Numbered from the stretch's first letter, positions 14,624-39,428 are shown. The stretch: 64,000 nt of DNA from Rhizobacter sp. (GCA_050916095.1 CP050901.1:1655474-1719473), one strand, 5' to 3'. Notes: generated from the sequence alone by a model not told the origin. A program made the numbers and translations.

Positions 14624-14975
14624 GGCGAGCCATCGTGAAGTCCAGACCTTCGCGCCGGGGCCGAAACAAGCGCCAAGCCGAGCGAAGTGCCGCAGAACAC
14701 CGGCGCCTGGCTTGGCGGCGTGAGCGTTGGCGAGATGGGTTCACCGGTGCCGTGGTTGCCGGTGTTGTGGGGGCGATATTTTGGATTTTCCCGCCCTCAA
14801 TACCGGGTGGCGGTTGGGACGCTGGGCCTCTGGTGTCGTTTGTGTGGTGATGTGAGGGCCGCCAACGCCCGGGGCACAATCAATGGCTGCAAACTCATCC
14901 AGGAGCCCCCACCATGCAAGGCGACCCCCAAGTCATTACTGACCTTGCCTCTGTAATCCGTATCCCATAACCGAG

Positions 14976-15872
14976 TCACGAATTGGCTTGCATGGCCTGG
15001 GCCGCAAACCAGCTTTGCTCGAACTGCATCGGACTGACATAGGCCAGAGTCGAGTGCAGCCGGGCTTGGTTGTACCAAAGCAGCCAGGCCATGACCTCGT
15101 CTTTGGCTTGCCTCCTGGTTTCAAAGCGCTGCCCATGTAGGCGTTCTACCTTCAGTGACCCGAACAAGGTCTCGCTGCACGCATTGTCCCAACAGTTGCC
15201 CCGCCTGCTCATGGACGCCTGAATTCCGTACTCACTGAGCACGTCCCTGAAGTCTTGGCTTGCGTATTGACTGCCTCTGTCGCTGTGGAAGATCAGCCCT
15301 GCGCCTTTGTCTGGATGTCGCTTGAACCATGCCATGCGCAGCGCATCAATGACGATGTCGCGTGTCATGTCTTGCCGCAAGCTCCAGCCCACCACTTGAC
15401 GGCTGAAGAGGTCAATCACCACTGCCAGGTACAGCCAGCCCTCTTGGGTGTCGATGTAGGTGATGTCCCCCGCCCACACCTTGTCAGGCTCTTGAACGTT
15501 GAATTGCCGCTCCAGCAGGTTGGGTGCAATCGGCAAATCATGTTTGCTGTCGGTGGTGATCTTGAATCTGCGTTTGCCTTTGGCGCGAATGCCGTGCAAT
15601 TGCATGAGCTTTTGCACCCGGTCTTTGCCCACCCGGATGCCGCGTGCCAGCAGTTCTTTCCACATGCGAGGCCAGCCGTAGCTGGCCCTGACCTGGGCGT
15701 GAATTGCTTTGATGTGTACCAGCAAGGCGTCATCACTGAGGTGGCGTCGTTGCGCCGCACTGGCCCGCCGCAGGAAGTGCTCGTGATACCCGGCCACGCT
15801 GACACGCAGAACCCGGCACTGCACAGAGATTGGCCACACCCGCCGGTGGCTTTGTATGAAGGCGTACTTCAC
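14976..15872 (-). CDS. IS3-family transposase OrfB (DDE integrase core)
   Basis: 298 aa, rve/DDE domain. Overlaps OrfA by 4 bp, probably expressed as an OrfAB fusion by -1 frameshifting. Confidence 0.9.
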   Translation of the reverse strand: MKYAFIQSHRRVWPISVQCRVLRVSVAGYHEHFLRRASAAQRRHLSDDALLVHIKAIHAQVRASYGWPRMWKELLARGIRVGKDRVQKLMQLHGIRAKGKRRFKITTDSKHDLPIAPNLLERQFNVQEPDKVWAGDITYIDTQEGWLYLAVVIDLFSRQVVGWSLRQDMTRDIVIDALRMAWFKRHPDKGAGLIFHSDRGSQYASQDFRDVLSEYGIQASMSRRGNCWDNACSETLFGSLKVERLHGQRFETRRQAKDEVMAWLLWYNQARLHSTLAYVSPMQFEQSWFAAQAMQANS

Positions 15873-16168
15873 GTCGATCCCTTTGCAAAGTACGCCGTGG
15901 CCTTTTCCAGGATGTCGCGCTCCATCTTGACCCGCGCCAGCTCTGCCCTCAAGCGGCTGATCTCCATTTGTTCGCTGCTTACCTTGACCCGGCTGTCAGC
16001 GCCCTTGAGTTTGCCTTCGCGGTGCGCTTTGATCCAGTTGAACAGCGTCTGCTCAACCACCCCAAGCGTCCTGGCCGCTGCCGCCATGCTTTGGCCGCCT
16101 TCCACCAGCCGCACCGCCTCGAACTTGAACTCCTGCGTGTACCTCGCCCTTTTGGCTCTCTTCGTCAT
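15869..16168 (-). CDS. IS3-family transposase OrfA (HTH)
   Basis: 99 aa, MTKRAKRARYTQEFKFEAVRLV...ILEKATAYFAK, typical of IS3 OrfA. Confidence 0.9.
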   Translation of the reverse strand: MTKRAKRARYTQEFKFEAVRLVEGGQSMAAAARTLGVVEQTLFNWIKAHREGKLKGADSRVKVSSEQMEISRLRAELARVKMERDILEKATAYFAKGST

Positions 16169-17112
16169 TTCCGCTCTCCTTTGCTTGCGATTGAATCACT
16201 CAGCAAGGGATACGGTTTTCGGGGGCAAGGTCATTACCGCGCTGCAAGCGCAACTCAGAAACGAACTCACGGCCATCAACCAGTATTTCGTCCACTACCG
16301 CATGTTCAAACACTGGGGTTTTGAGAAGATTGCCAAGAAGGAGTACGAGGAGTCCATTGGCGAGATGAAACACGCCGATGCGTTGATGGAGCGCATCTTT
16401 GCGCTCGACGGTCTGCCCAATTTGCAAGACCTGGGCAAGTTGTTCATCGGTGAAACTCTGGTGGAAGCACTGCGTTGCGACCTCACCTCTGAGCAAGGGG
16501 CACAGCAAACCATCAAAGACGGTATTCATACCTGCGAGGCCGCCCGAGACTATGTGTCACGCGACCTGCTGCAAGGCATTTTGGAAGACACCGAAGAACA
16601 CATCGACTTCCTGGAAACCCAGCTCGATCTGGTAGCCAAGGTGGGTGAGCAGAACTACCTTCAGTCGCAGATGGGTTGACTTTTGATGGGTGGACTCAGT
16701 CGTCGAACGTCAGCTGAGGCACCTCCGATACCGTGACTTGCTCGCAGTGCTCGCCAGGGCTGCGATAGCTGTCACGGGGCCAGCACCCCGATGGTGTCCA
16801 GATCTTCAATGCTCTGCTCACGGCAGGAGTCTCCGGCCGACATTCAAAACAGTGAGTGCTCCGACGCGAAGCGTTGTCGAGCGACCATGTGTGGACCCGC
16901 CGCCATCACCCGGCGAGTCGCTTGGCCCAACGGCAACGCCGGAGAACATCAGGCCAAAAAGCCGCTTGTCCACAGTCCGGCCAAGGGTAAGCGTGGAAGC
17001 CGCAGGTGTAAGCGCGGCGCGCTCTTGTGCATCGCTTTGCCCTCGTGTGTCTTATAGAAGCAGTTTCTGCCGTGACAGGCGGGTTAACGATGGCCGTCAG
17101 CTTGGGCGCGGA

Positions 17113-17131
17113 ACGTGTTGTAATGCGAATC
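17113..17131. promoter_or_regulatory. candidate Fur box upstream of bfd-hemP
   Basis: AATGCGAATCGTTCTCATT is the same variant as the box at 12634. It is about 440 bp upstream of bfd, so the regulatory link is uncertain. Confidence 0.35.
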
Positions 17132-17568
17132 GTTCTCATTTATAGTATCCGAACTGGTCTGTTATGCCAAAACCAATTCACGACAGAACCCACCCGCGAA
17201 GGGCTGTGGCCGGTTTAACAGATCGTTCAGCCACATCGCCCGCTAGGGCGCTATCTCCGTACTCTGGAGGAGTCGATCTTGAAACATCTCCTGCCTAATT
17301 GCCGAGCCGCGACGCTCACGCGAGTTGTTGCGCTGCCGAGGAATTCACAGCTGTCTTGGCTCTCTACGGCCATCAGTCGGTTGAAGGCTGAGGCTCGAGG
17401 CTCGATTTTGGGTACCGCCCATCTGCTCATTCAGTGCGATCAAGGCAGTGCCTGCGGGCATGAATCCAGAAAAGACGGGCTCACTCGCTTATGTTTTATC
17501 CATGCATCGCAAAACAACGGCCCGTTCCTGGGCGGTTCTGGGGGGCGGAGCGCCGAAGGAGCACAAGC

Positions 17569-17820
17569 ATGATCGTGTGCATTTGCCACCGCGTCTCCGA
17601 CCGGGACATTCACCGCGCTGTTCACGAAGGCTGCCGCAGTTTTGAAGACCTGCAAGATGAATTGCGCGTGGCCACAGGCTGTGGGGCGTGCACGCGCTGC
17701 GCAGCCCATCTTTTCGAGGCACAAGTGCAGGCCTGCTCGAAGGTTTGTTCTGCGGAAACGTCAGCCACTTGCTCGGCTGGTTTGCAATCGTCGGTGAACT
17801 TTTTGCAGGTGGCCGCATGA
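17569..17820 (+). CDS. bfd: BFD-like [2Fe-2S]-binding protein (bacterioferritin-associated ferredoxin)
   Basis: MIVCICHRVSDRDIHRAVHEGCRSFEDLQDELRVATGCGACTRCA with CxC...CxxC. RBS AAGGAG. Confidence 0.8.
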   Translation: MIVCICHRVSDRDIHRAVHEGCRSFEDLQDELRVATGCGACTRCAAHLFEAQVQACSKVCSAETSATCSAGLQSSVNFLQVAA

Positions 17821-19080: not shown

Positions 19081-19620
19081 GATGAGGACTTGCTGCCCTT
19101 GTCCCATGGCGCGGTTGAATCTGCGCCCGATTGACTTGCGTGGTGACAGCCCTGCTGTCACCACGCCGCCGAGTCCCCCGTCAGAGGACGCTCGAAGGTC
19201 AAGCCTTCGATTCGCAAGGGGTTGCCCCCTTCACACTGGAGTGCGGTGTCGAACCGCCCCCGCTTTGAGTTGCCACGGCTTGACCGTGGCTGTCTCCGCC
19301 AGATTCCCGTCAGAGGATCAGCGAAGGTTAGTTTTTTGCCTTTGCAGTGGATGAGGTTCTGATGACCTTCATCCAGCGGCGCGGTTCGCCCCGCGCCCAA
19401 AGTCTCCGCATGGCCACAGCTCCGCTGTCGCCATGCCGCCAGGTTCCCCGTCAGAGAACTTCAGAAGGTCAAGCCTTCGGATTGCAAGGGTTTGCGCCCT
19501 TCACCTTTGGTTGCGGCTTGTCCCGCACCGCCCTTGAGTTGCCACGGCTTGACTGTGGTGGCCCACGTCAGATCCCCCGTCAGAGGATCAACCACTGAAC
19601 GTGTGCGAAGCACACCCCTT
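19081..19620. repeat. two tandem ~270-bp repeat units (~75-80% identical) with conserved hairpins
   Basis: Both units begin GATGAGG..., contain CCCGTCAGAGGA sub-repeats (4 copies), and have hairpins TGGTGACAG/CTGTCACCA and GCCACGG/CCGTGGC that keep pairing through partly compensatory changes. Confidence 0.6.
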
Positions 19621-19862
19621 GGACCCTGGGTCAATGGTCTGCTGTGTGAGCTGTACCCACAGGTACGACACACAGTGCCACATGCGCGTGCAACGCAGGC
19701 AAGTTGTACCCCTTTGCACAAACGGGATTGGTGTCCCGTGTCCCTTGTGATTCCTACTCGCTGCGGCGTTTGGGATGGACAGAAACACTTACCGATTTTT
19801 TGGCACCACGTTTTCATTTTTGGTTTTCTTGTTTTTGCTCCGCTGTTTTCAAGAGGTACCCC

Positions 19863-20729
19863 ATGCGCAACCTGAACCACGATTTCAAGAACCTTGCCCG
19901 TCGCAACCGAGATGGGTCGTTTGCGACCCAGCATGACCGAGAGGTCATGCTGACCTTGGTCGCGAATCAATTGCACGAAGGGGGCTTCCGGCATCTACGG
20001 GCCACGGGGGTGCGCTCCAAGCATGTGGAGCATTTGGTGAACCGCTGGCATGAAGAAGGCATCAGCCCCGGCACCTTCAAGAACCGGATGAGCGCTTTGC
20101 GTTGGTTGGCCGAGAAGATCGGCAAACAAAACATCGTGGCCCGTGAGAATGCGGCCTATGGCATTGCGGATCGGCGCCACGTGACGAATGAATCCAAGGC
20201 CCAGTTGTTGGAAATCGCACGCCTTGATGTGGTGACCGATCCGTACACGGTGTTGTCGCTGAGGCTGCAAGAAGCCTTTGGTCTGCGGCGGGAGGAAAGC
20301 ATCAAGCTGCAGCCCGTTTGGGCCGATCGTGGCGATGTGTTGCGACTCAAGGCCAGTTGGACCAAAGGCGGCAAGGAGCGGGAAGTTCCGATCGTCACTG
20401 ATGTACAGCGCCTAGCGTTGAACGATGCCAAACAGTTGGCGGGTTCAGCGTCCTTGATCCCTGAAGGCATGTCCTACCGCGACCAACTCAACCGCTTCAA
20501 GGCGCAAGCGGCCAAGGCGGGCATCAACCGGGTGCATGGGCTGCGGCATCAATACGCGCAGCGGCGGTATCAACAGCTCACCGGATGGAAGGCTCCCGCA
20601 GCGGGTGGGCCAACTTCAAAGCAACTCAGTGCGGAGCAGAAGGCGTTGGACCGGCAAGCACGCCTTGTTGTCTCGCGTGAGCTGGGTCATGAGCGCGAGC
20701 AAATAACTTCGGTTTATTTAGGCCGCTGA
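19863..20729 (+). CDS. tyrosine recombinase / phage-type integrase family protein
   Basis: C-terminal HGLRHQYAQRR ... LGHEREQITSVYLGR (H-x-x-R and catalytic Tyr). Start trimmed to MRNLNHDFKNLA. Confidence 0.7.
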   Translation: MRNLNHDFKNLARRNRDGSFATQHDREVMLTLVANQLHEGGFRHLRATGVRSKHVEHLVNRWHEEGISPGTFKNRMSALRWLAEKIGKQNIVARENAAYGIADRRHVTNESKAQLLEIARLDVVTDPYTVLSLRLQEAFGLRREESIKLQPVWADRGDVLRLKASWTKGGKEREVPIVTDVQRLALNDAKQLAGSASLIPEGMSYRDQLNRFKAQAAKAGINRVHGLRHQYAQRRYQQLTGWKAPAAGGPTSKQLSAEQKALDRQARLVVSRELGHEREQITSVYLGR

Positions 20730-20763
20730 ACCAGAACCGCAATGCATGACTGGTCAGACCGCC

Positions 20764-21135
20764 ATGAACACGCTGGACCTGGTTCAAGCCGCACACCTGC
20801 TAAAGGTGCATCCAAAGACCTTGGAGCGTCTGGCACGCAGTGGTGCGGTTCCGGCCTGCAAGGTGGGACGCGCCTGGGTCTTTGTCGACGACTTGCTTCT
20901 TGAAATGCTGGTGTCAAAATCGACCTCGCGTGTGTCCGTGGTCGACTTACAGGAGAACTCTGAATGTCGCTCTACAGACGCAAGGACTCACCATTTTGGT
21001 GGGTCAAACTCCCGCTCATTCGCGGCGAGTCGAAGCCTTTACAGCAAAGCACTGGGACTGCCGATAAGCGGCAGGCGCAGCAGGTCCATGACCAGCTCGC
21101 CGCCGCCCGATGGGAGCAAGAACGGCTTGGTGTGA
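20764..21135 (+). CDS. AlpA/Xis-like helix-turn-helix excisionase-family protein (3' extent uncertain)
   Basis: MNTLDLVQAAHLLKVHPKTLERLARSGAVPACKVGRAWVFVDDLLLEML is a classic phage regulatory HTH. The ORF as drawn overlaps the int start by about 170 bp. Confidence 0.5.
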   Translation: MNTLDLVQAAHLLKVHPKTLERLARSGAVPACKVGRAWVFVDDLLLEMLVSKSTSRVSVVDLQENSECRSTDARTHHFGGSNSRSFAASRSLYSKALGLPISGRRSRSMTSSPPPDGSKNGLV

Positions 21136-21998
21136 AGGCCCGGCACACCTGGGAAGAGGCGGTACTGCGCTGGCTCTTGGAAACGAAGCACAAGGCCACG
21201 CACGAAGATGACAAGGCAAAGCTTCGCTGGCTGGATTCTTACCTTGGAGGAAAGTACCTCGACGAGATCGACCGAACGCTGATTGACCGGATCAAGTTTG
21301 ACCGCGAAAACGTCTCTTCGCACTCAACAACAAACCGCTACTTGGCTTTGGTGAGAGCGATTCTCAAACGTGCTTGCAACGAGTGGGAATGGCTGGAACG
21401 GGTGCCCAAGTTCAAGTTGTTCAAGGAAACCGAAGGCCGGGTTCGTTCATTGACACCGCAGGAATTTCAGACGCTGTTGAATGAACTGCCGGAGCACTTG
21501 TTCGACATGGCGGTGTTCGCAGTGGCAACCGGGCTCAGGCAAGCCAACGTGAAGGGCTTGCAGTGGTCACAGGTGGACTTGGAACGACAACATGCCTGGA
21601 TTCCTGGAAGCCAGCACAAGAATGGCAAGCCGCATTCGGTGCCTTTGAACGACATGGCCTTAACTGTGTTGGGCAGGCAACTGGGCAAGCACCCGAGTTG
21701 TGTGTTCACTTACCAGGGTCAAGCCATCGAGCAAGTCTCCACGCGGGCTTGGCGGCGGGCGCTGGAGCGGGCAGGGATTGCGGACTTTCGGTGGCACGAT
21801 TTGCGGCACACGTTTGCGACATGGCACCGGCAGGCCGGAACACCCACCCATGAGCTACAGCGGCTCGGTGGTTGGAAAACCGGCGTGATGGTGGAACGTT
21901 ACGCCCATGTCGCACCCGAGGCGTTGCAAAGTGCGGCCAGCCGGTTGGATGGGTTTGGTGGCTACGATTTGGCTACGCCACAAAGGACAACGGCTTAG
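20964..21998 (+). CDS. int: tyrosine-type site-specific integrase (phage/island integrase adjacent to tRNA)
   Basis: 344 aa with R...HDLRHTF...Y catalytic signature (WHDLRHTFATWHRQAGT ... VERYAHV). Ends 29 bp from the 3' end of tRNA-Asn. Confidence 0.85.
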   Translation: MSLYRRKDSPFWWVKLPLIRGESKPLQQSTGTADKRQAQQVHDQLAAARWEQERLGVKARHTWEEAVLRWLLETKHKATHEDDKAKLRWLDSYLGGKYLDEIDRTLIDRIKFDRENVSSHSTTNRYLALVRAILKRACNEWEWLERVPKFKLFKETEGRVRSLTPQEFQTLLNELPEHLFDMAVFAVATGLRQANVKGLQWSQVDLERQHAWIPGSQHKNGKPHSVPLNDMALTVLGRQLGKHPSCVFTYQGQAIEQVSTRAWRRALERAGIADFRWHDLRHTFATWHRQAGTPTHELQRLGGWKTGVMVERYAHVAPEALQSAASRLDGFGGYDLATPQRTTA

Positions 21999-22026
21999 AC
22001 ATTTCTGTCTAAGCCGTTGATTTTCT

Positions 22027-22102
22027 TGGCTCCTCGACCTGGGCTCGAACCAGGGACCTACGGATTAACAGTCCGGCGCTCTACCGACTGAGCTATCGAG
22101 GA
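22027..22102 (-). tRNA. tRNA-Asn (GTT), 76 nt with encoded CCA
   Basis: Reverse complement reads TCCTCGATAGCTCAGTCGGTAGAGCGCCGGACTGTTAATCCGTAGGTCCCTGGTTCGAGCCCAGGTCGAGGAGCCA. Anticodon loop CU-GUU-AA, T-loop GGTTCGAGCCC, 7-bp acceptor stem TCCTCGA/TCGAGGA. Confidence 0.9.
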
Positions 22103-22151: not shown

Positions 22152-24356
22152 TCAAAGATCAGTTTGCACTGACAAGCGGAAGGTTCGCGGTGCCATGGGG
22201 TAGAGGTAGACGTGGTCGAACTGGTAAGGCGACTCGCGCCAGCGGCGTTGGTCGAACACGTTGCTCACACCGGCCCGCCAAATCCACTGGCTGGTGGATT
22301 TGTTCCCTGCACCGCCAGTGCGGTAACGCAAGCCCAAATCCACCTGCTGGGTGCTGGGAATGCTGACGCTGTTGTCGGGCAGCACTTGTCGGCGGCTTTC
22401 AGAAACAACATCGGCCAACAATGCCAAACCCTGCAGCGCAGCCACGTCGTAGCGCGCTTGCAGCTTCACCGTCGTGGTCGGCACGTTCACCGGCGTTTTG
22501 CCGTTGATGTTTGGGTCTTGGCTGTTTTGCCGCTTTGCGTGCAGCCACTGCAAGCCGCCCTGCAGTGACCACGGACCGCTGCGCAGGTTGGTGGTCAGCT
22601 CGATGCCTTGGTGGCGAGCTTGTCCATCCGTCTGGCGCGTGCAGGTGCCGCCTGGGGTGTCGCTGAAACAATCTGGCCCGACGCTGGTTGAAACGGGGCG
22701 ACTGATGTCAAACCACGCGACCGACCAGGCCAGGGGTCGGCCGCTCTTTTTCAGGCCAATCTCGGTTTGTCGGCTACGCAGTGCAGGCAAGGCCTGACCT
22801 GCATTGGTGAAGCGCGCGCGGTTGGGGGCTACATCGCTTTCAACGCCTTGGCCCCAACTGGCGTAGGCCGTGGTGTCGTCGTTCAGGGCAACGCTTGCCG
22901 CTAACCACGGGGTGGTGAACGATTGCTGGTAGCTCGTTGCACGCGAGCCATTGGTGCGAATGCTGTCGCGCTCCAATCGGCTGTGACGCAGGCCCAGCCA
23001 CGCGGTGAGGTGGGGCGTGAATTTGACCGCGTCGCGTACAAAAAATTCGGTGCTGCGCTCATCGCGGTTGGTGTTTTGATCGGTCAAGGCCGGGTCGGCC
23101 GGTGTGATGGCCGTGCCGATCACATTGCCGCTACCCACGTAGTTGTAGGCCTGCATCTGAAAACGTTGGATCAGCTTGTTCTGCTGCACGCCCCAGGAAA
23201 GCCGGTGTTCCAAATTGCCGGTTTGAAATTGGCCATGCGCGGCCACCTCCAAGCTATGCAAACGGCGGCGCTCGTTTTCGCTGCGGAAGTCGTACATGTC
23301 AAAGCTGCCATCCGAACAGTAACGGTCGTAGCGCTCTTCTGCACTGCAGCCATAGGCGTAAGCGAGGCGGTCCTGGGTTCGCAGGCGTTGGCTAGCAGCA
23401 TGGGCTGTCCAGCGCCACTGCGAATTCAGACGCTGGGTGTAACGCAGTGAGTAGGTGTCTGCGTCCATCACCACAGGCAAGGACCATGGCTGGTTGTTCA
23501 GGTTAATACGCGCATCGTTCACTGCGGGCAGCGTATTGCCCAGCAAACTGAAGCCGGGTTGGCTGCGCTGGCTGCGGTGGCTGGTTTCAAACTCCGCTTC
23601 CAAAAGAACGTCGGGGTTGATGCGCCAATCACCGGCCACGGCCAACAAATTGCGGTGGCCTTGCAACTGACGTACGAAAGAATCCAAACGTTCATAAGCC
23701 GCATTCACCCGCAGGCCGAATGTTTGATCCTTGCCAAATCGCTGGCTGATGTCCACCGCGCCCAAGAGTGCGCCGTTGTCTCGCCATTCCACGAAGGCGT
23801 TGCGCAGCGGCTCGGCCAAAGGGCGCTTCACCACCAAGTTGACCAAACCGCCTGGGCTGCTGACGCCAGTTTGCACGCCACTGGTGCCTTTGAGGATTTC
23901 GATGCGTTCTTTGTTGTCCAGTGGCAGCGAGGTTTCTGCGCTGATGGGCAAGCCATCACGTCGGAAGTTTCTGCGGTGGTCCACCACATACCCACGAATC
24001 GTCAGGTAGTCCCAATACCCTTCGCTGTTGTAGGCGTCGCTCACAGCGGGGTCGAGTTTGGTGGTGTTGGACAAACGCGAGAAGCTGCGGTCGCGCTGCG
24101 CCTCCAGGTTGATGGTGCTGGCTTGGAACGGGGCCTTTGCGGCAGGGACGTCACCCCAACCGCTCACGTCAGCAGGTGGGTTGGCGCGGCCTGTCACCGT
24201 GACGGGTTCAAGTGTTGGGGTGTTCTGGTTGGTGGTCTGCGCCCAAAGGCTGCTGCTGATGCAAAGCAAAAGAGCGGCATGTGCAATGGGCTTCAGCGCT
24301 GAATGACGCTGATACTTGGTCGAGCGGGTCGTGTGTGATGCGAAGAAATTTGCCAT
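22152..24356 (-). CDS. TonB-dependent siderophore receptor
   Basis: Signal peptide ...LLLCISSSLWAQT, plug and barrel regions. Start trimmed to MANFFASHTTR. Confidence 0.8.
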   Translation of the reverse strand: MANFFASHTTRSTKYQRHSALKPIAHAALLLCISSSLWAQTTNQNTPTLEPVTVTGRANPPADVSGWGDVPAAKAPFQASTINLEAQRDRSFSRLSNTTKLDPAVSDAYNSEGYWDYLTIRGYVVDHRRNFRRDGLPISAETSLPLDNKERIEILKGTSGVQTGVSSPGGLVNLVVKRPLAEPLRNAFVEWRDNGALLGAVDISQRFGKDQTFGLRVNAAYERLDSFVRQLQGHRNLLAVAGDWRINPDVLLEAEFETSHRSQRSQPGFSLLGNTLPAVNDARINLNNQPWSLPVVMDADTYSLRYTQRLNSQWRWTAHAASQRLRTQDRLAYAYGCSAEERYDRYCSDGSFDMYDFRSENERRRLHSLEVAAHGQFQTGNLEHRLSWGVQQNKLIQRFQMQAYNYVGSGNVIGTAITPADPALTDQNTNRDERSTEFFVRDAVKFTPHLTAWLGLRHSRLERDSIRTNGSRATSYQQSFTTPWLAASVALNDDTTAYASWGQGVESDVAPNRARFTNAGQALPALRSRQTEIGLKKSGRPLAWSVAWFDISRPVSTSVGPDCFSDTPGGTCTRQTDGQARHQGIELTTNLRSGPWSLQGGLQWLHAKRQNSQDPNINGKTPVNVPTTTVKLQARYDVAALQGLALLADVVSESRRQVLPDNSVSIPSTQQVDLGLRYRTGGAGNKSTSQWIWRAGVSNVFDQRRWRESPYQFDHVYLYPMAPRTFRLSVQTDL

Positions 24357-24617
24357 CGTGGTTCCGTGTTGCGATGGCAGGTCGGCGGCCCCAACAAAGC
24401 GTTGCCACGTCAAGTGGCGGCGATGCTTGGAGCATGCTTCCCTGCGCGAGGATTACCTCAATCAGGTTCAAAGGGACTTTCTCAGTCGAGCCGTGGCGAA
24501 CACGGCCCAACACCCCTAGCGAATGCGGCAACAGTTTGTTGCCGCAAGGGAGATTATCGCTTCAGTTGAAAGCCCATGGCCAGGGCAGGCCGAAGGGGCA
24601 CCGCTCACACGCGGTGT

Positions 24618-25337
24618 TCACGCCGTGGACAGCGTCACCCACAAGGATTCAAACGCGGCATGAAACTGCCTGAGCAAGCCTGGGTCGTTGCTGAGTACCA
24701 GGTTCTCTTCGTTGTGTTCGCAGGCGCTGCGCGTCCAGTTGTAGCTGCCGTTGAGCAGCCAGCGGCGGTCGAAGAGGGCGTATTTGTGGTGCATGTGGGC
24801 GGGCGTGAAGTCAACCCGAACGTTGATGCCCGCAGCGCGCAGCCTGTCAATGTCGCTGCCAGTATCAAAAGCCTTGTCATTGTCGGTGATCAAACGCACC
24901 ACCACGCCGCGGCGGTGGGCTGCCAGAACCTCCTGGCTGATGCGGTCGTCCGAGAGCGTGAAAACACAAATGTCCACGCACTCACGGCTGCTGCGTAATT
25001 GGCCCAGGATGGCGTTGAGGCAATCGGCTCCAGGACTGAAATAGGCCTGCGCACGGTGGCTGCCGCCAGCCGTGCGAGAGACATCCAGCGCGCGCATCAC
25101 GCCCTCCAGCCAGCGCACCAGGGCTTGGGGTTCGGCTGATTCCAGCGTGCCAAGTTGTTGGCGCACCAACTCAAACGCCCCGTTGCGCAGTTGGCGCAGC
25201 CCTTCTTCTGGCAGCTGGGCATCACGCAGCGTTTGGGTGAGTTGGCGTTTTTCTTCGTCGCTGAGGCGGGCGTCTTGCAAGCTGTCTTGCAATTGCCGGC
25301 GCAAACTATGTAGCACCTCTTGGGCGGGGGCGGACAT
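24618..25337 (-). CDS. phospholipase D-family (Nuc-like HKD) nuclease
   Basis: HMHHKYALFDRRWLLNGSYNWTRSA is an HxK(x4)D(x6)GSxN motif. Start ATG lies 1 nt after the TGA stop of the upstream giant gene, indicating translational coupling. Confidence 0.75.
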   Translation of the reverse strand: MSAPAQEVLHSLRRQLQDSLQDARLSDEEKRQLTQTLRDAQLPEEGLRQLRNGAFELVRQQLGTLESAEPQALVRWLEGVMRALDVSRTAGGSHRAQAYFSPGADCLNAILGQLRSSRECVDICVFTLSDDRISQEVLAAHRRGVVVRLITDNDKAFDTGSDIDRLRAAGINVRVDFTPAHMHHKYALFDRRWLLNGSYNWTRSACEHNEENLVLSNDPGLLRQFHAAFESLWVTLSTA

Positions 25338-25338
25338 A

Positions 25339-30564: not shown

Positions 30565-30645
30565 GAGGAATCAGTGGAGTCCGGTTGGAGGGCCGAGGTG
30601 GTTGGTGCCGCGCTTCAAAACGCGCACACGGCCTTTAGAGGGCCT

Positions 30646-30894
30646 TTAAAGGCTGTGTTGTGCACGCAAATCGGCCACCGCCTTGCGCATGTCATCGCTC
30701 AAATCAGACGGCGTCAGTTTGGCGATGATGCTGCGCAGGATGCGCTTTTCGTTGTCGTCCACCGCGCCGTCTCGCTGGGCAATGGCGACAATTTTCTTCA
30801 GCTCTGCCACCTCCAGCACACCGTCGTTGGAAAAACACTGGATGGAACGGAAGGCCATCTCTAAGTAGTCGCGGGATTCAGCCATGTTGAACAT
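30646..30894 (-). CDS. small TerB-like (tellurite-resistance TerB / DjlA-N-like) domain protein
   Basis: 82 aa with duplicated DG(x5)E pattern (SNDGVLEVAELKKIVAIAQRDGAVDDNEKRIL). Sits between the flotillin and the giant ATPase gene. Confidence 0.5.
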   Translation of the reverse strand: MFNMAESRDYLEMAFRSIQCFSNDGVLEVAELKKIVAIAQRDGAVDDNEKRILRSIIAKLTPSDLSDDMRKAVADLRAQHSL

Positions 30895-30929
30895 TCCTTA
30901 TCGTTGAAAATTGGAAGTGAGCTGAGCCT

Positions 30930-33071
30930 TCAAGACTTACCCAAACTCTTGAGCAGGTTTTGCAACGCTGTCTTCTGAGACTCATCACCGTCGCGCATGA
31001 CCTTGCTCAGCAGCGAGGCCACGCTCAGGTTCTGAATTTCGCTGGCTGAACTGCCCAAAGCGCCAAGCAGCTCGCGCAGGTCTGGGATCACATCGCGCTC
31101 ACCGGCCAATTGGTCTTTGAAGGCCACTTGCAAGGTTTTGCTTTTGTTCACCACACCGTCGATGCCTTTGCCCACGGACAAGGCATTGACGAAGCGGTCG
31201 AAGTAGTCGCCTTCGCCACCCACGATGTCGATCTTGGCATTGGTCAAAGCGGTACCCAAAACATCCGCTTGCTCGCGGGCGATGGAGGTTTGCGCCTCAA
31301 TGCCTTTGACGGTTTCAATGTGGGCCTTCTCCAATTGCATGCGGAATTCTTCGTGGGCCCGGGTCTCGGGGCTCATGGCGCTCATGGCTTCGAACTTGTC
31401 ACGCAGGCCCTTGGCCTCAGCCTGGAAGCGGACTTCAATGGTGTTCGCATCGGCTTGGCCCGACTTCACCACCGCGTCGGCGTCGGCCAGGCGCACCTGC
31501 ACGTCGGCCAAACCGAGTTTTTCTTTGCCTGTGGCTTCGGCTTCGAGTTTGGCTTGCAGGCCCGCCGCTTCGGCTTGGGAGCGCAGTTCAATCACCTTGG
31601 CTTCGGATTGGCCTTCTTTCAAAGTGGCCTCGGCGCCGGCAGTGCGCACATGGACATCGGCCATGCCTTGTTTCTCGATGGCATCGGCTTGCACCATGGT
31701 GACCTTGGCCGCGGCCAAACCAGGTGCGGCGCTGAGGGCCTCAACGCCTTCTGCTTCGCGTTTTTTGGCTTCCGCGTCTTTCTCAGCCACTTTCAATCGC
31801 GCGTCGGCCAGGGTGGTTTCTTCCACTGCTTTGTGGCGGGCACGGCGTTCTTGGGCTTCGGCGGCTTTGACTTCGGTGATGAGTTTTTCCTCGGCTTGGC
31901 CTTCCGCCAGGATCACCGTTGATTGTTTGGTGCGGCTGGCGTCGGCCACCACACGCAGCTCTTTGATGGCTTCTTCTTGTTCGGCCACGGTGCGCTCGAC
32001 CACGATGCGCTCGCGGATGACGTCGGCGATGGCTTTCTTTTGCACCTCGACGGCTTTGTCTTTCTCGATTTTCTGCAGCGTCACTTCTTTCTCGCGGTCC
32101 ACCACCTCCAGCTCGCGGGCACGAATGACTTTTTCCTCTTCAATCGCCACGGCACGCTTGCGGTTGTTCTCGGCCACTTCTTTTTCACGCAGCACGTTTT
32201 CTTGCTGCACGGACACCGACTGTTCGGCCTGCAAGCGAGCCATCTCAGACTTCGTTTTTTCTTCGGACTGAACTTTTGATGTTTCGGCCTCTTCGCGGGC
32301 CTTCACCGTGGCCACCTCACGCGACTGGCGGGCCTGCGCATCGGCCGCTTGGCGCTCCAGCTCCAGCAGGGCTTCTTGGGTTTCGACGTTTTTCTTTTTG
32401 ATCTGCATCTCTTCGTTGCGACGCAGCTCGTTGGTGCGCACATGCTCCACCGCCGTCAATTCGGTGATTTTTTTGATGCCCTGCGCATCCAGGATGTTGT
32501 TGGAATCGAGTTTTTCCAGGGGTGTTTGTTCGAGGTAGTCGATGGCTGCATCGTCCAGCACATAGCCCGAGAGGTCGTCGCCAATCTGGCTGATGATCTC
32601 GTCTCGGAAGCGGTCACGCGCCTGGTACAGGTCGACGAAATCCATGGCTTTGCCAACAGTTTTCAAAGCCTCTGAGAACTTGGCGGAGAACAGCTCCTCC
32701 AGCGTCTCTTGGCTGGACGCTCTTGCGCAGCCTATGGCCTGCGCTACCTTCAAGACGTCGTCGGCGGTTTTGTTAACGCGCACGAAAAATTTCACTTTGA
32801 TGTCGGCGCGAATGTTGTCGCGGCAAATCAGGCCCTCGAGGCCCGAGCGGTCAATTTCAATGGTTTTGACCGAAATCTCCATCAACTCAGCCTTGTGGAT
32901 GATGGGGTAGACCATGCGGCCAGTGAACGTCACTTCCGGTTCGGCGCGTAAGGTGTTGATGATGAGCGCATGGCCTTGTTCTATCTTGCGATAGAACTTG
33001 GCAAACATGGCGACGAAACACAGCAGAAAGAAAGCCGCTAAACCCGCGGCGACGATGACGGTGAACTCCAT
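30930..33071 (-). CDS. yqiK: flotillin/SPFH (band 7) family inner-membrane protein, YqiK-like
   Basis: N-terminal TM segment, SPFH domain, then a very long Ala/Glu-rich coiled-coil repeat region. Start trimmed to MEFTVIVAAGL. Confidence 0.8.
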   Translation of the reverse strand: MEFTVIVAAGLAAFFLLCFVAMFAKFYRKIEQGHALIINTLRAEPEVTFTGRMVYPIIHKAELMEISVKTIEIDRSGLEGLICRDNIRADIKVKFFVRVNKTADDVLKVAQAIGCARASSQETLEELFSAKFSEALKTVGKAMDFVDLYQARDRFRDEIISQIGDDLSGYVLDDAAIDYLEQTPLEKLDSNNILDAQGIKKITELTAVEHVRTNELRRNEEMQIKKKNVETQEALLELERQAADAQARQSREVATVKAREEAETSKVQSEEKTKSEMARLQAEQSVSVQQENVLREKEVAENNRKRAVAIEEEKVIRARELEVVDREKEVTLQKIEKDKAVEVQKKAIADVIRERIVVERTVAEQEEAIKELRVVADASRTKQSTVILAEGQAEEKLITEVKAAEAQERRARHKAVEETTLADARLKVAEKDAEAKKREAEGVEALSAAPGLAAAKVTMVQADAIEKQGMADVHVRTAGAEATLKEGQSEAKVIELRSQAEAAGLQAKLEAEATGKEKLGLADVQVRLADADAVVKSGQADANTIEVRFQAEAKGLRDKFEAMSAMSPETRAHEEFRMQLEKAHIETVKGIEAQTSIAREQADVLGTALTNAKIDIVGGEGDYFDRFVNALSVGKGIDGVVNKSKTLQVAFKDQLAGERDVIPDLRELLGALGSSASEIQNLSVASLLSKVMRDGDESQKTALQNLLKSLGKS

Positions 33072-33126
33072 ATGATTCCTTTTTTTGTAGCGTGAAGTGT
33101 TGAGTGGAATGCTGGTGGCTGTCAGT

Positions 33127-33774
33127 TCAAAGCAATGCATCCGGTGACGGTCGAACCAAATAATGACGAGTGGTTTCGTTGTAGGCCACGATTTGCGCTT
33201 TGTCGCCCTTGACCAGGGTTTGAGGCGCTTGTGTCCAGACCCGGATGTGAACGTTGGTGCCCTGCTGTATCACCGCAGCGCGGCCAAAACGATCATCCAC
33301 ACGCTGGCTCAATACGACGCAGGTTTGTCCCACCAGGCCGGCATTGCCAACGGCGTGGTGGACGAAGAAGAGCCCTCGCATGGGACGAATCAACAGGGCC
33401 GTCAGTGGAATCGATGCCGCCAGGCTTAGCAGCAAGATGACGGTGCCGCTGACCCAAAAAATGAAGCCGCTGCCAAGGCTGGCCAAGACCCATTGGCCCG
33501 CCAGGCAACACAAGGTCCACGACAGCAGCACCAAGATGCTGACCACGATGGAAAACGGCACACCGTGCAAGCCCATGGCCACCGCGTAACCGGCGAGGGT
33601 GGACAGCTCGCCGGGGTCGCCGTCGGCCTGCAACTCCACTTCCAGGTCGAGACCGGTGGATTCGAAATCCACAAACCCCACCAAGGCCAGCAGCCAGTAC
33701 ACCAGCACCACCAGCAGCAGTGCGGTGAAGATGGCAGTGGGGTAACTCAATGCGGCACCGATAAAACGGTCCAT
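33127..33774 (-). CDS. yqiJ: NfeD-like membrane protein (YqiJ/DUF1449) with C-terminal OB-fold
   Basis: 215 aa, multi-TM N-terminus and soluble C-terminus. Canonical upstream partner of flotillin. Confidence 0.7.
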   Translation of the reverse strand: MDRFIGAALSYPTAIFTALLLVVLVYWLLALVGFVDFESTGLDLEVELQADGDPGELSTLAGYAVAMGLHGVPFSIVVSILVLLSWTLCCLAGQWVLASLGSGFIFWVSGTVILLLSLAASIPLTALLIRPMRGLFFVHHAVGNAGLVGQTCVVLSQRVDDRFGRAAVIQQGTNVHIRVWTQAPQTLVKGDKAQIVAYNETTRHYLVRPSPDALL

Positions 33775-33829
33775 GCTTTCCTCCCTCGATGCGTGATGGG
33801 CTTTTAGACCACCGTTTTTTGTGAGTGAA

Positions 33830-34165
33830 TTATCGGTGTGTGATGCTTTGCTGCGCGAAGCGGATCAGTTCCTGGGTCACGCGTTCTTTGATGGTTAGTT
33901 TGTCGTCTGGCGGTAACCCGTAACGTTGGGCGAGGACCTCATAGTCAGCCGTGGTCAACGATACGGTGAGCCTGGGGCGCTTGGGCCGGGTGGGCGCAGA
34001 CAACTGCAGCAGCGCCCGGATTTGGTCTGAAGTGGACAGGTTGTTGTGAAACGCAGCCGTGCGCACCGCTTGCAGCACGGTTTCTTCCACATCAAAGGCC
34101 ACCTGGACTGCACGCAGCGCGTCGTCTGACCCACTCCAGCGCGCCGGCTTGCGTTGCATGGTCAT
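33830..34165 (-). CDS. hypothetical protein
   Basis: 111-aa ORF with 4-bp overlap to the upstream PspA-family gene. Confidence 0.4.
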   Translation of the reverse strand: MTMQRKPARWSGSDDALRAVQVAFDVEETVLQAVRTAAFHNNLSTSDQIRALLQLSAPTRPKRPRLTVSLTTADYEVLAQRYGLPPDDKLTIKERVTQELIRFAQQSITHR

Positions 34166-34872
34166 GTGGGATTCTGCGACTCGTTTTGACGTCTCGCACG
34201 AATGCGATCCATCACGGCTTGCTGGCGCTGTGCGTTGTCGCCTATGCCCGCCTTCGCGAGTTTTTCGGTGAGCGCTGCATCACCGAGGTCTTTGTTCAGT
34301 TGCTCGGCGGCTGTCATGCGGTCGGCCAGGGTTTCATGGCGCTGCTTGATGCGTTCCAACGATTCGCGGGCACTCACCAAACGTGAGCCGCCGTGGTCGA
34401 TGTTGTCCGAGATGGAGCGCGTCGCCCGGTAGACGCTCTCGGTGGTTTTGGCGATGCCCAGTTCTCGTTCGTGTTCGCGGATGCGTGCCTCGGCGGTTTT
34501 GATCAGGTCTTTCAAACGCGACACCTGCAGCGAGCAGGCCGCGTGCGCGCGGCTTTGCGCTTGCAGTGCCAAATCCAGCGCGCCCACTTTGCTGGCCACT
34601 TCTTCGGCCAGTTGGTCTTCATGTTTGTTCAGCGCCTCGACAGCCAGGGTTTCATAGCGCTGGATCTCGTTCTGTAATTTTTCGATTTCACGGGCGCTTT
34701 GCATTTCGTGCGCCATGACACCAGCGAGTTCATGCTTGGCATCGGAGACGGATCTTTTGGCATCCAGAATTTCTTGCTCGTAAATCGCGCTGGCGTTGGC
34801 GTCGACCACGCTCTCGCCGATGTCGCGCATGCTGCTGCGCATAAGGGTGATGACTTTTTTTATCACGGACAT
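34162..34872 (-). CDS. PspA/IM30 family protein (YjfJ-like)
   Basis: Coiled-coil PspA pattern. Start trimmed to MSVIKKVITLMRSSMRDIGESVVDANASAIYEQEILDAKR. Confidence 0.75.
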   Translation of the reverse strand: MSVIKKVITLMRSSMRDIGESVVDANASAIYEQEILDAKRSVSDAKHELAGVMAHEMQSAREIEKLQNEIQRYETLAVEALNKHEDQLAEEVASKVGALDLALQAQSRAHAACSLQVSRLKDLIKTAEARIREHERELGIAKTTESVYRATRSISDNIDHGGSRLVSARESLERIKQRHETLADRMTAAEQLNKDLGDAALTEKLAKAGIGDNAQRQQAVMDRIRARRQNESQNPT

Positions 34873-34900
34873 GGGGGTCTCCCGGGCGTTGCGGGGTGCG

Positions 34901-35317
34901 TCATTGCAAAAACTCCGACAGCGCGTCCAACGCATCCAGCGCGTTGTCGCTGAGTATGGACACGTCATGGGCGACGTCCTGAACCTTGGCATCACGCGCC
35001 AGCGCACCAAACAAGACGAAGCGCTTGCCGACGCGGCCAAAGGAGGACAGCGGCACCGAGGGATTCAGGTCGAGCAAAGTTTCCAGTAATTCGCCTCGGC
35101 GTTCAGGCAGTACTTCATCGTCCGACCAGAGGTAACACAGGCACAGAATTTGGGCCTCAGAACTGGTGAGGTAAATGGGCAACTCTTGCCGCCCCTCAAT
35201 GCTGATCTGCACCACAGGGACGTCGCCCGGTATCGGCTGCAGATCGACAGCGACGCCGCCCATGGCCTCGCCTATCAGCACGTCCAAACCCTCCAGCAAC
35301 TCGTGCAGTGTTTTCAT
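34901..35317 (-). CDS. DUF2170 (YjfI-like) protein
   Basis: Start trimmed to the Met preceded by the strong RBS GGGAGG (MKTLHELLEGLDVLIGEA...). YjfI/YjfJ pairing as in E. coli. Confidence 0.6.
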   Translation of the reverse strand: MKTLHELLEGLDVLIGEAMGGVAVDLQPIPGDVPVVQISIEGRQELPIYLTSSEAQILCLCYLWSDDEVLPERRGELLETLLDLNPSVPLSSFGRVGKRFVLFGALARDAKVQDVAHDVSILSDNALDALDALSEFLQ

Positions 35318-36035: not shown

Positions 36036-36091
36036 GCGGGGCTCCGTGGGTCGGCCATGGAGTGTAGGGGGTGAGCCCGCTGCGCCGTGTG

Positions 36092-37165
36092 TCAGCGCTC
36101 TGGCGTATCGACCCCGAGCCGCTGCTGCAGTTTGGAACTGCTGGTGGTGTATTCCAAGCGGACCGGTTGATCGGGAAACACTATTGCAGCGGCCGCAAAC
36201 GCGGCCAGCGTAGCCTCGTGAAAGCCGCACAGGATGAGTTTGCGTTTGCCGGGGTAGGTGTTGACGTCACCCACCGCGAAGATGCCCGGCACGCTGGTTT
36301 GGAATTTCTCGGTGTCCACCACCACCTGTTTGCGCTCCAGGTCCAAGCCCCATTGCGCGATCGGGCCGAGCCTGGGCGACAGGCCCAGGAAAACCAGCAG
36401 CGCATCCAGCGGCAGGGTTCGTGTGTTGACATCTGTGTCCGTGATGTGCACGCCTCGGAGGCGTCCACTGTCGATCTCCAAGCCGGTGATCTGCCCCACA
36501 TGGAATTGAATCTGCTGCGCCTCGCACAAGGCCTGTACCTTGGCCACGCGGGCGGGTTCGGCCTGGAAACCATCACGGCGGTGCACCAGGGTGACGCTGG
36601 CGGCTTGGTGCGGGCCCGGTTGCGCAAAGTAGGCGGCCCAGTCGAGGGCCGTGTCGCCGCCGCCATTGATAGTGATGTGTTGGCCTTGGAACAAGGCCGG
36701 GTCTTTGACGCCGTAAAAAATCTGCGTGCCGACCAAGGGCTCGACGCCATCCACCTTCAGCGAACGCGGTTGAAACGAGCCCACGCCGCCTGCGACAAAA
36801 ATGGTTTTGGTGATGAAACCCTGGCCCTGGACGGTGGCCACATCAAACCGCCCATCCTCGCGCCGCTGCACCAGGCTGACTTCCTGGCCCATGTGAAAGC
36901 GGGCACCCAGGGGTTTGATTTGGTCCAGCAGCCTGTCGACCAGTTCTCGGCCTGTGCAGGCGGGCAGTGCGGGAATGTCGTAGATGGGTTTGTCAGGGTA
37001 CAACTCGGCGCATTGGCCGCCAGGGTGGTCCAGCGTGTCCACTACATGAGCTTGAATGCCGAGCAAGCCCAGCTCGAACACCTGGAACAAACCCACAGGA
37101 CCGGCGCCGATGATGAGGGCGTCGGTTTCTATTGGCGCCAATGTGGAGTCGAGCAGTTTCGACAT
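36092..37165 (-). CDS. ferredoxin-NADP+ reductase (thioredoxin-reductase-like FNR type 2)
   Basis: 357 aa with two dinucleotide-binding motifs (IIGAGPVGL and [12 protein letters not shown]). Confidence 0.8.
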
Positions 37166-38093
37166 CAGCCACTAACCAATGAACAGGCTCGGTCGACATT
37201 TCGTAGACATCATGGTTCTGCCTCCGTGGCTTTGAACACCCCTGGCCATTGAAGCTCTATCGAGACTCCATCTGTTCCGAATATCGTTGGGTGGTCCAAA
37301 TGTCTATATCCCAGAAGTCTTTAACGATCAGCGCGTGATTGGCGTCGAAATCAATTGCCCAATGGTAGTTCTTGACAGGCTGTTCGGGGCCGCTGAACCC
37401 GATCCGAACACAGCGTCCAACTACCTTCCATTCGTTGCATCCACGCCAGAACGTTGCGGCGTTGGTAGCATCTGGTAGCGGCAAGGACTCGTTGAACAGC
37501 CGATTGAACGTATCGACAAACTGCCGAGCTCTTGACTCGACAACTTGATCGACTGTCCAGATGTATTCGGGGGTGCCGTTCATCGCGCTACCAGCAACCG
37601 CCGCTGCATAAAGCACGACTGACTCTCGCAGTGCTGTCAATACGACCGGATCACGCGATAAAGCGGCGAGGGTCACCAAAGAGAAATCGTTGGAGTTGAC
37701 AGCACACAGGTAAGCGGCGTCCGTTATTTTTGGGATGTTCCACGCGGGAATCGTCTTCTGAAGGGCGAGTGACAACGAATCTTCCCCCCCGCTTAACAAA
37801 CAGTCCCCATCGGATGACGGTCCAAAGATGCCTGACTCGATGATTTGTTTGAGGCGCTTGTAGCCCTCTACGGCAAAAACATTTGGTTCCAGGTGCCTCG
37901 GAACGCGTTGAAGCGCTCGCATAAGACGGAAGTACTCTGTCAGCTGCTCGTCCTCAGCGTAATAGCCCTCAATGGGAACATTTGCCGGGGCAATTGCCAA
38001 CGCAGAAGCGGTCTCTTTGGCGCAGCAATGACCTTGCCCCCGAAAACCGTATCCCTTGCTGAGTGATTCAATCGCAAGCAAAGGAGAGCGGAA

Positions 38094-38393
38094 ATGACGA
38101 AGAGAGCCAAAAGGGCGAGGTACACGCAGGAGTTCAAGTTCGAGGCGGTGCGGCTGGTGGAAGGCGGGCAAAGCATGGCGGCAGCGGCCAGGACGCTTGG
38201 GGTGGTTGAGCAGACGCTGTTCAACTGGATCAAAGCGCACCGCGAAGGCAAACTCAAGGGCGCTGACAGCCGGGTCAAGGTAAGCAGCGAACAAATGGAG
38301 ATCAGCCGCTTGAGGGCAGAGCTGGCGCGGGTCAAGATGGAGCGCGACATCCTGGAAAAGGCCACGGCGTACTTTGCAAAGGGATCGACGTGA
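38094..38393 (+). CDS. IS3-family transposase OrfA
   Basis: 99 aa, identical to 15869-16168. Confidence 0.9.
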   Translation: MTKRAKRARYTQEFKFEAVRLVEGGQSMAAAARTLGVVEQTLFNWIKAHREGKLKGADSRVKVSSEQMEISRLRAELARVKMERDILEKATAYFAKGST

Positions 38394-39286
38394 AGTACGC
38401 CTTCATACAAAGCCACCGGCGGGTGTGGCCAATCTCTGTGCAGTGCCGGGTTCTGCGTGTCAGCGTGGCCGGGTATCACGAGCACTTCCTGCGGCGGGCC
38501 AGTGCGGCGCAACGACGCCACCTCAGTGATGACGCCTTGCTGGTACACATCAAAGCAATTCACGCCCAGGTCAGGGCCAGCTACGGCTGGCCTCGCATGT
38601 GGAAAGAACTGCTGGCACGCGGCATCCGGGTGGGCAAAGACCGGGTGCAAAAGCTCATGCAATTGCACGGCATTCGCGCCAAAGGCAAACGCAGATTCAA
38701 GATCACCACCGACAGCAAACATGATTTGCCGATTGCACCCAACCTGCTGGAGCGGCAATTCAACGTTCAAGAGCCTGACAAGGTGTGGGCGGGGGACATC
38801 ACCTACATCGACACCCAAGAGGGCTGGCTGTACCTGGCAGTGGTGATTGACCTCTTCAGCCGTCAAGTGGTGGGCTGGAGCTTGCGGCAAGACATGACAC
38901 GCGACATCGTCATTGATGCGCTGCGCATGGCATGGTTCAAGCGACATCCAGACAAAGGCGCAGGGCTGATCTTCCACAGCGACAGAGGCAGTCAATACGC
39001 AAGCCAAGACTTCAGGGACGTGCTCAGTGAGTACGGAATTCAGGCGTCCATGAGCAGGCGGGGCAACTGTTGGGACAATGCGTGCAGCGAGACCTTGTTC
39101 GGGTCACTGAAGGTAGAACGCCTACATGGGCAGCGCTTTGAAACCAGGCGGCAAGCCAAAGACGAGGTCATGGCCTGGCTGCTTTGGTACAACCAAGCCC
39201 GGCTGCACTCGACTCTGGCCTATGTCAGTCCGATGCAGTTCGAGCAAAGCTGGTTTGCGGCCCAGGCCATGCAAGCCAATTCGTGA
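38390..39286 (+). CDS. IS3-family transposase OrfB (DDE)
   Basis: 298 aa, identical to 14976-15872. Confidence 0.9.
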   Translation: MKYAFIQSHRRVWPISVQCRVLRVSVAGYHEHFLRRASAAQRRHLSDDALLVHIKAIHAQVRASYGWPRMWKELLARGIRVGKDRVQKLMQLHGIRAKGKRRFKITTDSKHDLPIAPNLLERQFNVQEPDKVWAGDITYIDTQEGWLYLAVVIDLFSRQVVGWSLRQDMTRDIVIDALRMAWFKRHPDKGAGLIFHSDRGSQYASQDFRDVLSEYGIQASMSRRGNCWDNACSETLFGSLKVERLHGQRFETRRQAKDEVMAWLLWYNQARLHSTLAYVSPMQFEQSWFAAQAMQANS

Positions 39287-39428
39287 CTCGGTTATGGGAT
39301 ACGGATTACAGAGGCAAGGTCACAAAGTAGCTCGTCCCGTTCGTGGTGTTTCATCGCTTCGCGATAAAACTCGTCGAGAGCAAGTAGCAGGACTCGGTTA
39401 TCTACGATTCGAGCGTGAGTGGTCATGA

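Follow-up and report, generated by a model that had tools for sequence, protein, structure and literature searches.

Inverted copies of an IS3-family insertion sequence around a 21.8-kb segment of a Rhizobacter-like chromosome

Insertion sequences (IS) that occur as an inverted pair raise a question about the DNA lying between them, which may have arrived together with both copies as a composite transposon or may be resident DNA that two copies of one element entered separately. This question is posed by a stretch of 64,000 nucleotides from Rhizobacter sp. (GCA_050916095.1, CP050901.1:1655474-1719473) in which two nearly identical copies of an IS3-family element enclose 21.8 kb. The whole 64-kb stretch is referred to here as the window, all positions are counted from its first letter, and the segment between the two copies is referred to as the bracket. 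An earlier note, made from the sequence alone, had proposed independent insertions around a segment rich in accessory cargo, and we evaluated the parts of that proposal. Our analysis makes it very probable that the pair arose by two separate transposition events of one IS3-family element in the chromosome of a Rhizobacter-like betaproteobacterium. The finding has little practical significance; this is routine bacterial genome biology and no new biology is implied. The pair does provide a worked example of how target-site duplications and gene restoration, taken together, separate independent insertions from composites and from IS-mediated inversions.

Two insertions, each with its own duplication and split gene

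The two copies, the direct repeats that flank them and the fragments of the genes that they interrupt are located as follows.

14940 to 16233, minus strand: IS copy 1, 1294 bp, transposase genes reading leftwards, out of the bracket; 99.85% identical to copy 2
38029 to 39322, plus strand: IS copy 2, 1294 bp, transposase genes reading rightwards, out of the bracket
14936 to 14939: target-site duplication TTAC, left of copy 1
16234 to 16237: target-site duplication TTAC, right of copy 1
14914 to 14939, plus strand: 5' fragment of the bacterioferritin gene bfr, codons 1-8 plus 2 nucleotides (nt), severed by copy 1
16234 to 16679, plus strand: 3' fragment of bfr, including the duplicated TTAC
38026 to 38028: target-site duplication CAA, left of copy 2
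39323 to 39325: target-site duplication CAA, right of copy 2
39323 to 39426, minus strand: 5' fragment of ORF2, a conserved hypothetical gene of 290 amino acids (aa) when restored
37257 to 38028, minus strand: 3' fragment of ORF2

The two copies lie in inverted orientation, 21,795 bp apart, and the sizes, positions and orientation recorded in the earlier note were all reproduced. A repeat finder returned a single long inverted repeat in the window, with arms at 14940-16242 and 38020-39322 before trimming to the element, and no further IS copies, full or partial, were found within the 64 kb. The 9 surplus bases of the arms reflect a likeness of the orfA-proximal flanks, which in IS-relative orientation are 16234-16242 and the reverse complement of 38020-38028 (TTACCGCGC and TTGCTGCGC, alike at 7 of 9 positions). 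This likeness may be due to chance or to target similarity and could hint at a target preference, the comparison comprising two cases only.

Copy 1 interrupts bfr. Its left flank reads ATG CAA GGC GAC CCC CAA GTC ATT AC and its right flank starts TTAC CGCG, and excision of the element together with one TTAC yields a bacterioferritin open reading frame (ORF) of 155 codons. Residues 1-154 of the restored protein align without gaps to residues 1-154 of two structures in the PDB (5zur, E = 2.6e-66; 4tod, E = 1.5e-53). The frame is kept only by the removal of 1, 4 or 7 nt, so that a 4-bp duplication is the sole solution within the range of the family. In other Burkholderiales the gene is uninterrupted, at 154-155 codons, in all 80 of the related loci that were fetched. 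A spurious 474-aa ORF (15255-16679, plus strand) runs through copy 1 into bfr and is an annotation artefact.

Copy 2 interrupts ORF2 at codon 34/35. Excision of this copy with one CAA gives a minus-strand ORF of 290 codons whose ATG lies 2 nt past the stop codon of fdxA. Its restored N-terminus is free of gaps against each of 37 full-length homologues, and gaps appear against all 37 if 0 or 6 nt are removed, that is, if both CAA repeats are kept or both are lost. The best match to ORF2 in public annotation (HEQ39_07925, from a metagenome-assembled genome (MAG) of Rhizobacter sp.) opens with MLAIESLSKGYGFRGQGH, translated from the IS end, before passing into the ORF2 sequence; it is a chimeric annotation artefact in which 18 IS-derived residues are fused to ORF2. 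Because this protein spans the IS end into ORF2, the copy 2 junction is present in the deposited assembly.

Flanks would match by chance with a frequency of 1/64 for 3 bp and 1/256 for 4 bp. Since removal of the IS and one repeat restores each of the split genes, both duplications are genuine, and the TTAC/TTAC and CAA/CAA flanks noted earlier are thus confirmed by gene restoration as well as by position. The earlier description of both copies as gene-disruptive is likewise borne out, the split genes being bfr and the 290-aa conserved hypothetical gene.

These junctions bear directly on the possibility that the inverted IS pair and the intervening 21.8 kb arrived as one unit, as in a composite transposon of the Tn5/Tn10 type. 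The arrangement itself invites this explanation, as a near-identical inverted pair brackets a segment with two tyrosine recombinase genes and composites of the Tn10/Tn5 type likewise consist of two inverted IS copies around a segment of DNA. IS10 and IS50 are IS4-family elements and move by cut-and-paste. Insertion as a unit would give a single outer duplication, but the outer flanks of the bracket are unlike (ATTAC and CAAAG) and no shared duplication surrounds the IS-cargo-IS unit as a whole; instead, a duplication of its own flanks each IS, and each of the two split resident genes has its remaining half within the bracket. The cargo shows no discontinuity with its surroundings, the frames of bfr and ORF2 running from outside to inside across each IS, and with gene halves on both sides of each copy the inner DNA is continuous with the outer DNA. 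The bracket also holds bfd, hemP, a tRNA-Asn gene and a module conserved across the order. A separate duplication for each IS and split genes that span the bracket edges mean that the segment was not delivered as a composite unit; a composite origin of the bracket is therefore refuted, and we accord it practically no probability. The independent insertions claimed in the earlier note are supported by the same evidence.

The flanks and split genes also establish the orientation of the bracket. An odd number of inversions would swap the inner gene halves, and as none is swapped there has been no net inversion. When the flanks were paired crosswise (left of copy 1 with the reverse complement of left of copy 2, and right of copy 1 with the reverse complement of right of copy 2), neither pair matched. 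The claim that the segment had not been inverted since insertion therefore holds in the form of no net inversion.

Anatomy, family membership and relatives of the element

The internal features of the two copies are as follows.

14940 to 14966: right inverted repeat (IRR), orfB-distal end of copy 1, TGACCTTGCCTCTGTAATCCGTATCCC; 23 of 27 positions match the opposite end
16207 to 16233: left inverted repeat (IRL), orfA-proximal end of copy 1
15869 to 16168, minus strand: orfA of copy 1, 99 aa; HTH_Tnp_1 (Pfam PF01527, E = 1.9e-18)
14976 to 15872, minus strand: orfB of copy 1, 298 aa, in the -1 frame relative to orfA; rve integrase core (Pfam PF00665, E = 9.3e-31)
15881 to 15884, minus strand: A-AAG, candidate -1 frameshift site of copy 1
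38094 to 38393, plus strand: orfA of copy 2
38390 to 39286, plus strand: orfB of copy 2
38378 to 38381, plus strand: A-AAG, candidate -1 frameshift site of copy 2

Relative to the IS, orfA occupies positions 66-365 and orfB positions 362-1258, an overlap of 4 nt, and both copies encode the same 99-aa OrfA and the same 298-aa OrfB, exactly as had been noted earlier. The element ends in TGACCTTGCC...GGCAAGGTCA, of the type TGACC...GGTCA with terminal TG...CA. Its terminal inverted repeats are perfect over the first 10 bases, which is the portion correctly quoted in the earlier note, but the true repeat is longer and extends to 27 bp with 23 matches.

The assignment to the IS3 family draws on several independent features. 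Two consecutive, partly overlapping ORFs are in relative frames 0 and -1, with a slippery A-AAG motif in the orfA/orfB overlap region of both copies. The terminal inverted repeats are imperfect and of the TG...CA type (expected length about 20-40 bp), and the duplications of 4 bp and 3 bp fall within the expected 3-5 bp. Pfam domains are HTH_Tnp_1 in OrfA and HTH_21, rve and rve_3 in OrfB. The catalytic DD(35)E residues of OrfB are D136 (WAGD), D198 (HSD) and E234 (CSE); D198 and E234 are separated by 35 residues, and K241 follows seven residues after E234. When a -1 slip at A-AAG was simulated, the resulting OrfAB of 397 aa scored 417 bits against the NCBIfam equivalog model NF033516 'IS3 family transposase' (cutoff 160) and covered the whole model (positions 1-369 of 369); the model of the next family, IS481, reaches 107 bits, below its cutoff of 224, and the IS2 TnpB model only 26 bits. 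All features of the IS3 family that can be read from sequence, the NF033516 score included, are thus present, in agreement with the family named in the earlier note. The -1 frameshift that would produce OrfAB in the cell is predicted from the slippery motif and the frames.

In the mechanism that we propose, OrfA, with its helix-turn-helix, and OrfB, with its DD(35)E integrase-type domain, would be fused into an OrfAB transposase by a -1 ribosomal slip at A-AAG. As for IS911, IS3 and IS150, OrfAB would excise an IS copy in circular form with its ends abutting (copy-out), and the circle would be pasted into a 3-4 bp staggered cut whose repair would generate the flanking duplication. One such event would have occurred at codon 9 of bacterioferritin, duplicating TTAC, and the other at codon 34/35 of the conserved hypothetical gene just downstream of fdxA, duplicating CAA. 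The inverted arrangement of the copies would be happenstance, and through the 1.3-kb inverted repeat that they form, RecA-dependent recombination could flip the enclosed 21.8 kb. Copy-out/paste-in is established for the IS3 family (PMC11708052), and by analogy the element studied here presumably follows the same route through a circular intermediate.

The closest element in PLSDB is carried by Polaromonas sp. P1-6 on plasmid unnamed1 (CP087967.1, 223946-225232), followed by ISRso20. The Polaromonas element is 79.9% identical in nucleotide sequence over its full length and 82.6% identical in OrfAB; it shares the TGACCTTGCC...GGCAAGGTCA termini, has a length of 1287 bp and is flanked by a 3-bp duplication (GTT). 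It differs in its nucleotide divergence of about 20%, its location on a plasmid and the lack of a curated IS name in its record. ISRso20 from Ralstonia solanacearum (NCBI 'IS3-like element ISRso20 family transposase') is colinear over its full 1287 bp, shares the two-ORF layout and has the same TGACCTTGCC/GGCAAGGTCA termini, but its nucleotide identity is 68-69% and the copy inspected has no flanking duplication.

At the protein level, transposases of Ideonella azotifigens, Thiomonas spp. and Verminephrobacter eiseniae have the same domains and are 84-88% identical to OrfB over 298 aa, and more than 3000 database proteins match OrfB at E <= 1e-100. Going by such protein matches, the transposase lineage is abundant in Burkholderiales. 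By the convention of ISfinder, about 95% aa identity denotes the same IS, and the Ideonella, Thiomonas and Verminephrobacter proteins fall below this value. The enterobacterial elements IS3, IS600 and IS1133 share this architecture, carry a slip motif of the A-AAG type and produce duplications of 3 bp; their OrfB proteins are about 40-41% identical, and their DNA similarity to the present element is confined to 70-140 nt around the catalytic core. The element is at most a new, unnamed member of a well-known family, which is an ordinary situation.

The named elements among the sampled matches of the protein search were IS600, IS3, IS1133, ISKpn18, ISAba22, IS981 and IS904, which we take, from their ISfinder subgroup labels, to lie outside IS407 and IS2. 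On the basis of these protein matches and the low score of the IS2 TnpB model, the element most likely belongs to the IS3/IS51/IS150 clade. Duplications of 3 bp have been reported for the IS3, IS51 and IS150 subgroups, 4 bp for IS407 and 5 bp for IS2 (PMC10045372).

Age and activity of the copies and stability of the bracket

The DNA of the two copies differs at 2 of 1294 positions, which gives the identity of 99.85%. Position 15113 is T where 39149 is G (in orfB, synonymous, Arg AGG/CGG), and 16094 is G where 38168 is C (in orfA, synonymous, Gly GGC/GGG); bases are read on the aligning strand, which is plus for copy 1 and minus for copy 2. Two metagenomic copies, L001 and L002, are 99.7-99.8% identical to the IS and carry C at both variable sites, IS positions 140 and 1121, in the orfA-to-orfB orientation, so that each copy in the window has one private derived change. 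Contrary to the earlier note, the copies are not sequence-identical at the DNA level, and its view of recent, active transposition is consistent with the intact ORFs and near-identity but overstated in light of a private substitution in each copy. The insertions are still young and not brand new. The element itself may be active at present, and the pair documents current or recent mobility of its lineage in a Rhizobacter-like genome, at the cost of a bacterioferritin gene and a conserved hypothetical gene.

Several observations weigh against two events of an active IS3-family element. The RNA 3' of the slip site folds no better than shuffled sequence (z = -1.65). The evidence for activity consists solely of intact ORFs and near-identity, and the count of IS copies covers the 64-kb window. 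Finally, the duplications are of unequal length, 4 bp for copy 1 and 3 bp for copy 2, and by the lengths reported for the subgroups one of the two events is atypical, whichever subgroup the element falls in. Several elements of the IS3 group give either 3 or 4 bp, and the irregularity seen here is consistent with that behavior.

The private changes also help to evaluate whether one copy is an assembly artefact, that is, a repeat placed twice or a chimeric join. This concern is reasonable for a source that is itself a MAG, and short-read metagenome contigs do break or join at IS ends, L001 being without a duplication and L002 ending inside the IS. However, all four junctions in the window are unique sequence, the junction pairs rebuild known genes to the nucleotide, each copy has its private single-nucleotide polymorphism (SNP), and a misplaced repeat would not yield matching 3-4 bp duplications that restore reading frames. 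An artefact is hard to reconcile with this evidence and we regard it as exceedingly unlikely. Either insertion may possibly be polymorphic in the sampled population.

An exact 40-mer of the IS end had no match among 185,579 representative genomes, and an exact-protein look-up of OrfB gave matches only in metagenome contigs of less than 2 kb. A metagenome scan recovered one full copy at 81% identity with ambiguous flanks (aag on one side and caag on the other), one fragment consisting of the terminal 43 nt, and one partial copy. At 117-140 of L001 (ERZ27287902 k119_255178), the 99.7%-identical copy stands right after GGGGGGTAGCTCAGTTGGGAGAGC, which resembles the 5' half of a tRNA gene, and no duplication flanks it; two explanations offer themselves for this site: either the IS entered a tRNA gene or short reads were joined chimerically.

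Intramolecular recombination between inverted repeats flips the intervening DNA, and deletion by simple homologous recombination requires direct repeats. The statement that the pair is poised to invert or delete the segment is accordingly sound as to inversion and mistaken as to deletion, the repeats being inverted and not direct. The inversion potential is a prediction from the geometry of the pair, and a 1.3-kb inverted repeat of this kind could destabilise assemblies or permit a 21.8-kb inversion. It is conceivable on these grounds that the segment has flipped by IS-IS recombination an even number of times, or that the population is a mixture of isomers of which one was assembled. An inverted repeat of 1.3 kb at 99.85% identity is by general knowledge ample for RecA, and such a history is compatible with any single consensus sequence. 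Against it, the ancestral order is present at both sites and the two private SNPs have been neither homogenised nor exchanged, which leaves only a slim chance for even-numbered flips or isomers. A related notion, that the pair serves as an invertible switch at the level of the population, or as an incipient compound element of 24.4 kb, with isomers or excised forms hidden by the consensus, is highly doubtful. If the latter were true, the compound element could move the tRNA-Asn/recombinase patch, the TonB receptor behind a riboswitch for thiamine pyrophosphate (TPP), and the PspA/giant-ATPase module.

Contents of the bracket and the question of accessory cargo

The principal features of the bracket are as follows.

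19704 to 22102 region: two tyrosine recombinase genes, one with Phage_int_SAM_2 and Integrase_1 (341 aa) and one with Phage_integrase (344 aa), apparently full-length
22027 to 22102, minus strand: tRNA-Asn; the recombinase genes abut and point at its 3' end
22152 to 24413: TonB-dependent receptor gene, behind the TPP riboswitch
24422 to 24527, minus strand: TPP riboswitch (Rfam RF00059, 56.4 bits), directly upstream of the TonB receptor gene
24627 to 35317, minus strand: 8-gene module of DUF2170, PspA/IM30, orf111, orf215, orf736, orf82, ATPase and PLDc_2

Left of copy 1 is an iron-uptake neighborhood that comprises a TonB receptor, two imelysins, a di-haem peroxidase, ExbB/ExbD, PepSY_TM and DUF2325. 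The bracket further contains the 3' part of bfr, bfd and hemP, a gene for a TrxR-like flavoprotein (reductase), and ORF2. To the right of copy 2, fdxA and sulfate-assimilation genes are followed by housekeeping genes out to 64 kb. The GC content is 55-65% inside the bracket and 50-64% outside, with no clear step at either IS. Gene order around bfr is not conserved among the loci of 80 relatives, searched with 35 window proteins, and the nearest Bfr is 86% identical, so that synteny is uninformative on accessory status.

The earlier note had placed most of the accessory cargo in the bracket, naming the giant-ATPase operon among it. This description does not survive closer inspection, as the bracket contains core-type genes (the 3' part of bfr, bfd, hemP, tRNA-Asn, the TonB receptor and the TrxR-like gene), and the ATPase module is widespread across the order and unremarkable in GC. 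The module is found at 68-82% identity in Variovorax, Hydrogenophaga, Ideonella, Rhizobacter, Aquabacterium and others, and its genes from DUF2170 to PLDc_2 are in the same order, with different neighbors, in Ideonella sp. MAG2 and in a Rhizobacter MAG, in both of which orf82 has no clear counterpart. Homologues of the ATPase (1741 aa; DUF3686, DUF7902 and AAA; NCBI name 'DNA repair ATPase') number more than 4000 at E <= 1e-20. Among the 120 matches listed, all are 1709-1776 aa long with at least 98% query coverage and 67-82% identity, and they come from many genera of the order; this conservation is close to that of Bfr (78-86%). A literature search found no mention of DUF3686, and neither the ATPase module nor ORF2 had a credible PADLOC hit or relatives in the PDB. 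Judged by its distribution, the module is not evidently accessory. The label of accessory cargo fits the recombinase patch and perhaps ORF2, and not the whole bracket. Of the features in this region, the 8-gene module looks more interesting than the IS pair.

The recombinase patch had been described as an integrase remnant; it contains instead two tyrosine recombinase ORFs of full length. No direct repeat of at least 12 nt derived from tRNA-Asn, as expected of an att site, was present in the window, and the island boundary is therefore lost or degenerate. The bracket also includes 1.7 kb of non-coding DNA with a diverged repeat at 270-nt spacing. The two units of this repeat (window 19138-19577) have a length of about 170 nt and are 77-78% similar. 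They closely precede the first recombinase gene and have no Rfam match; each carries the motif CCCGTCAGAGGA...GAAGGTCAAGCCTTCG. The TPP riboswitch in front of the TonB receptor gene suggests thiamine-regulated outer-membrane uptake by this receptor.

ORF2, which sits in the lowest-GC kilobase of the bracket, has 630 homologues at E <= 0.001, mostly of 290-297 aa. The family has no Pfam domain, and its members are 52-70% identical and scattered over Betaproteobacteria, Planctomycetota, Bacteroidota and Cyanobacteria (Acaryochloris). Their gene neighborhoods are unrelated, and one homologue lies within a run of small unannotated ORFs. The combination of high conservation and patchy distribution suggests that ORF2 may have spread horizontally.

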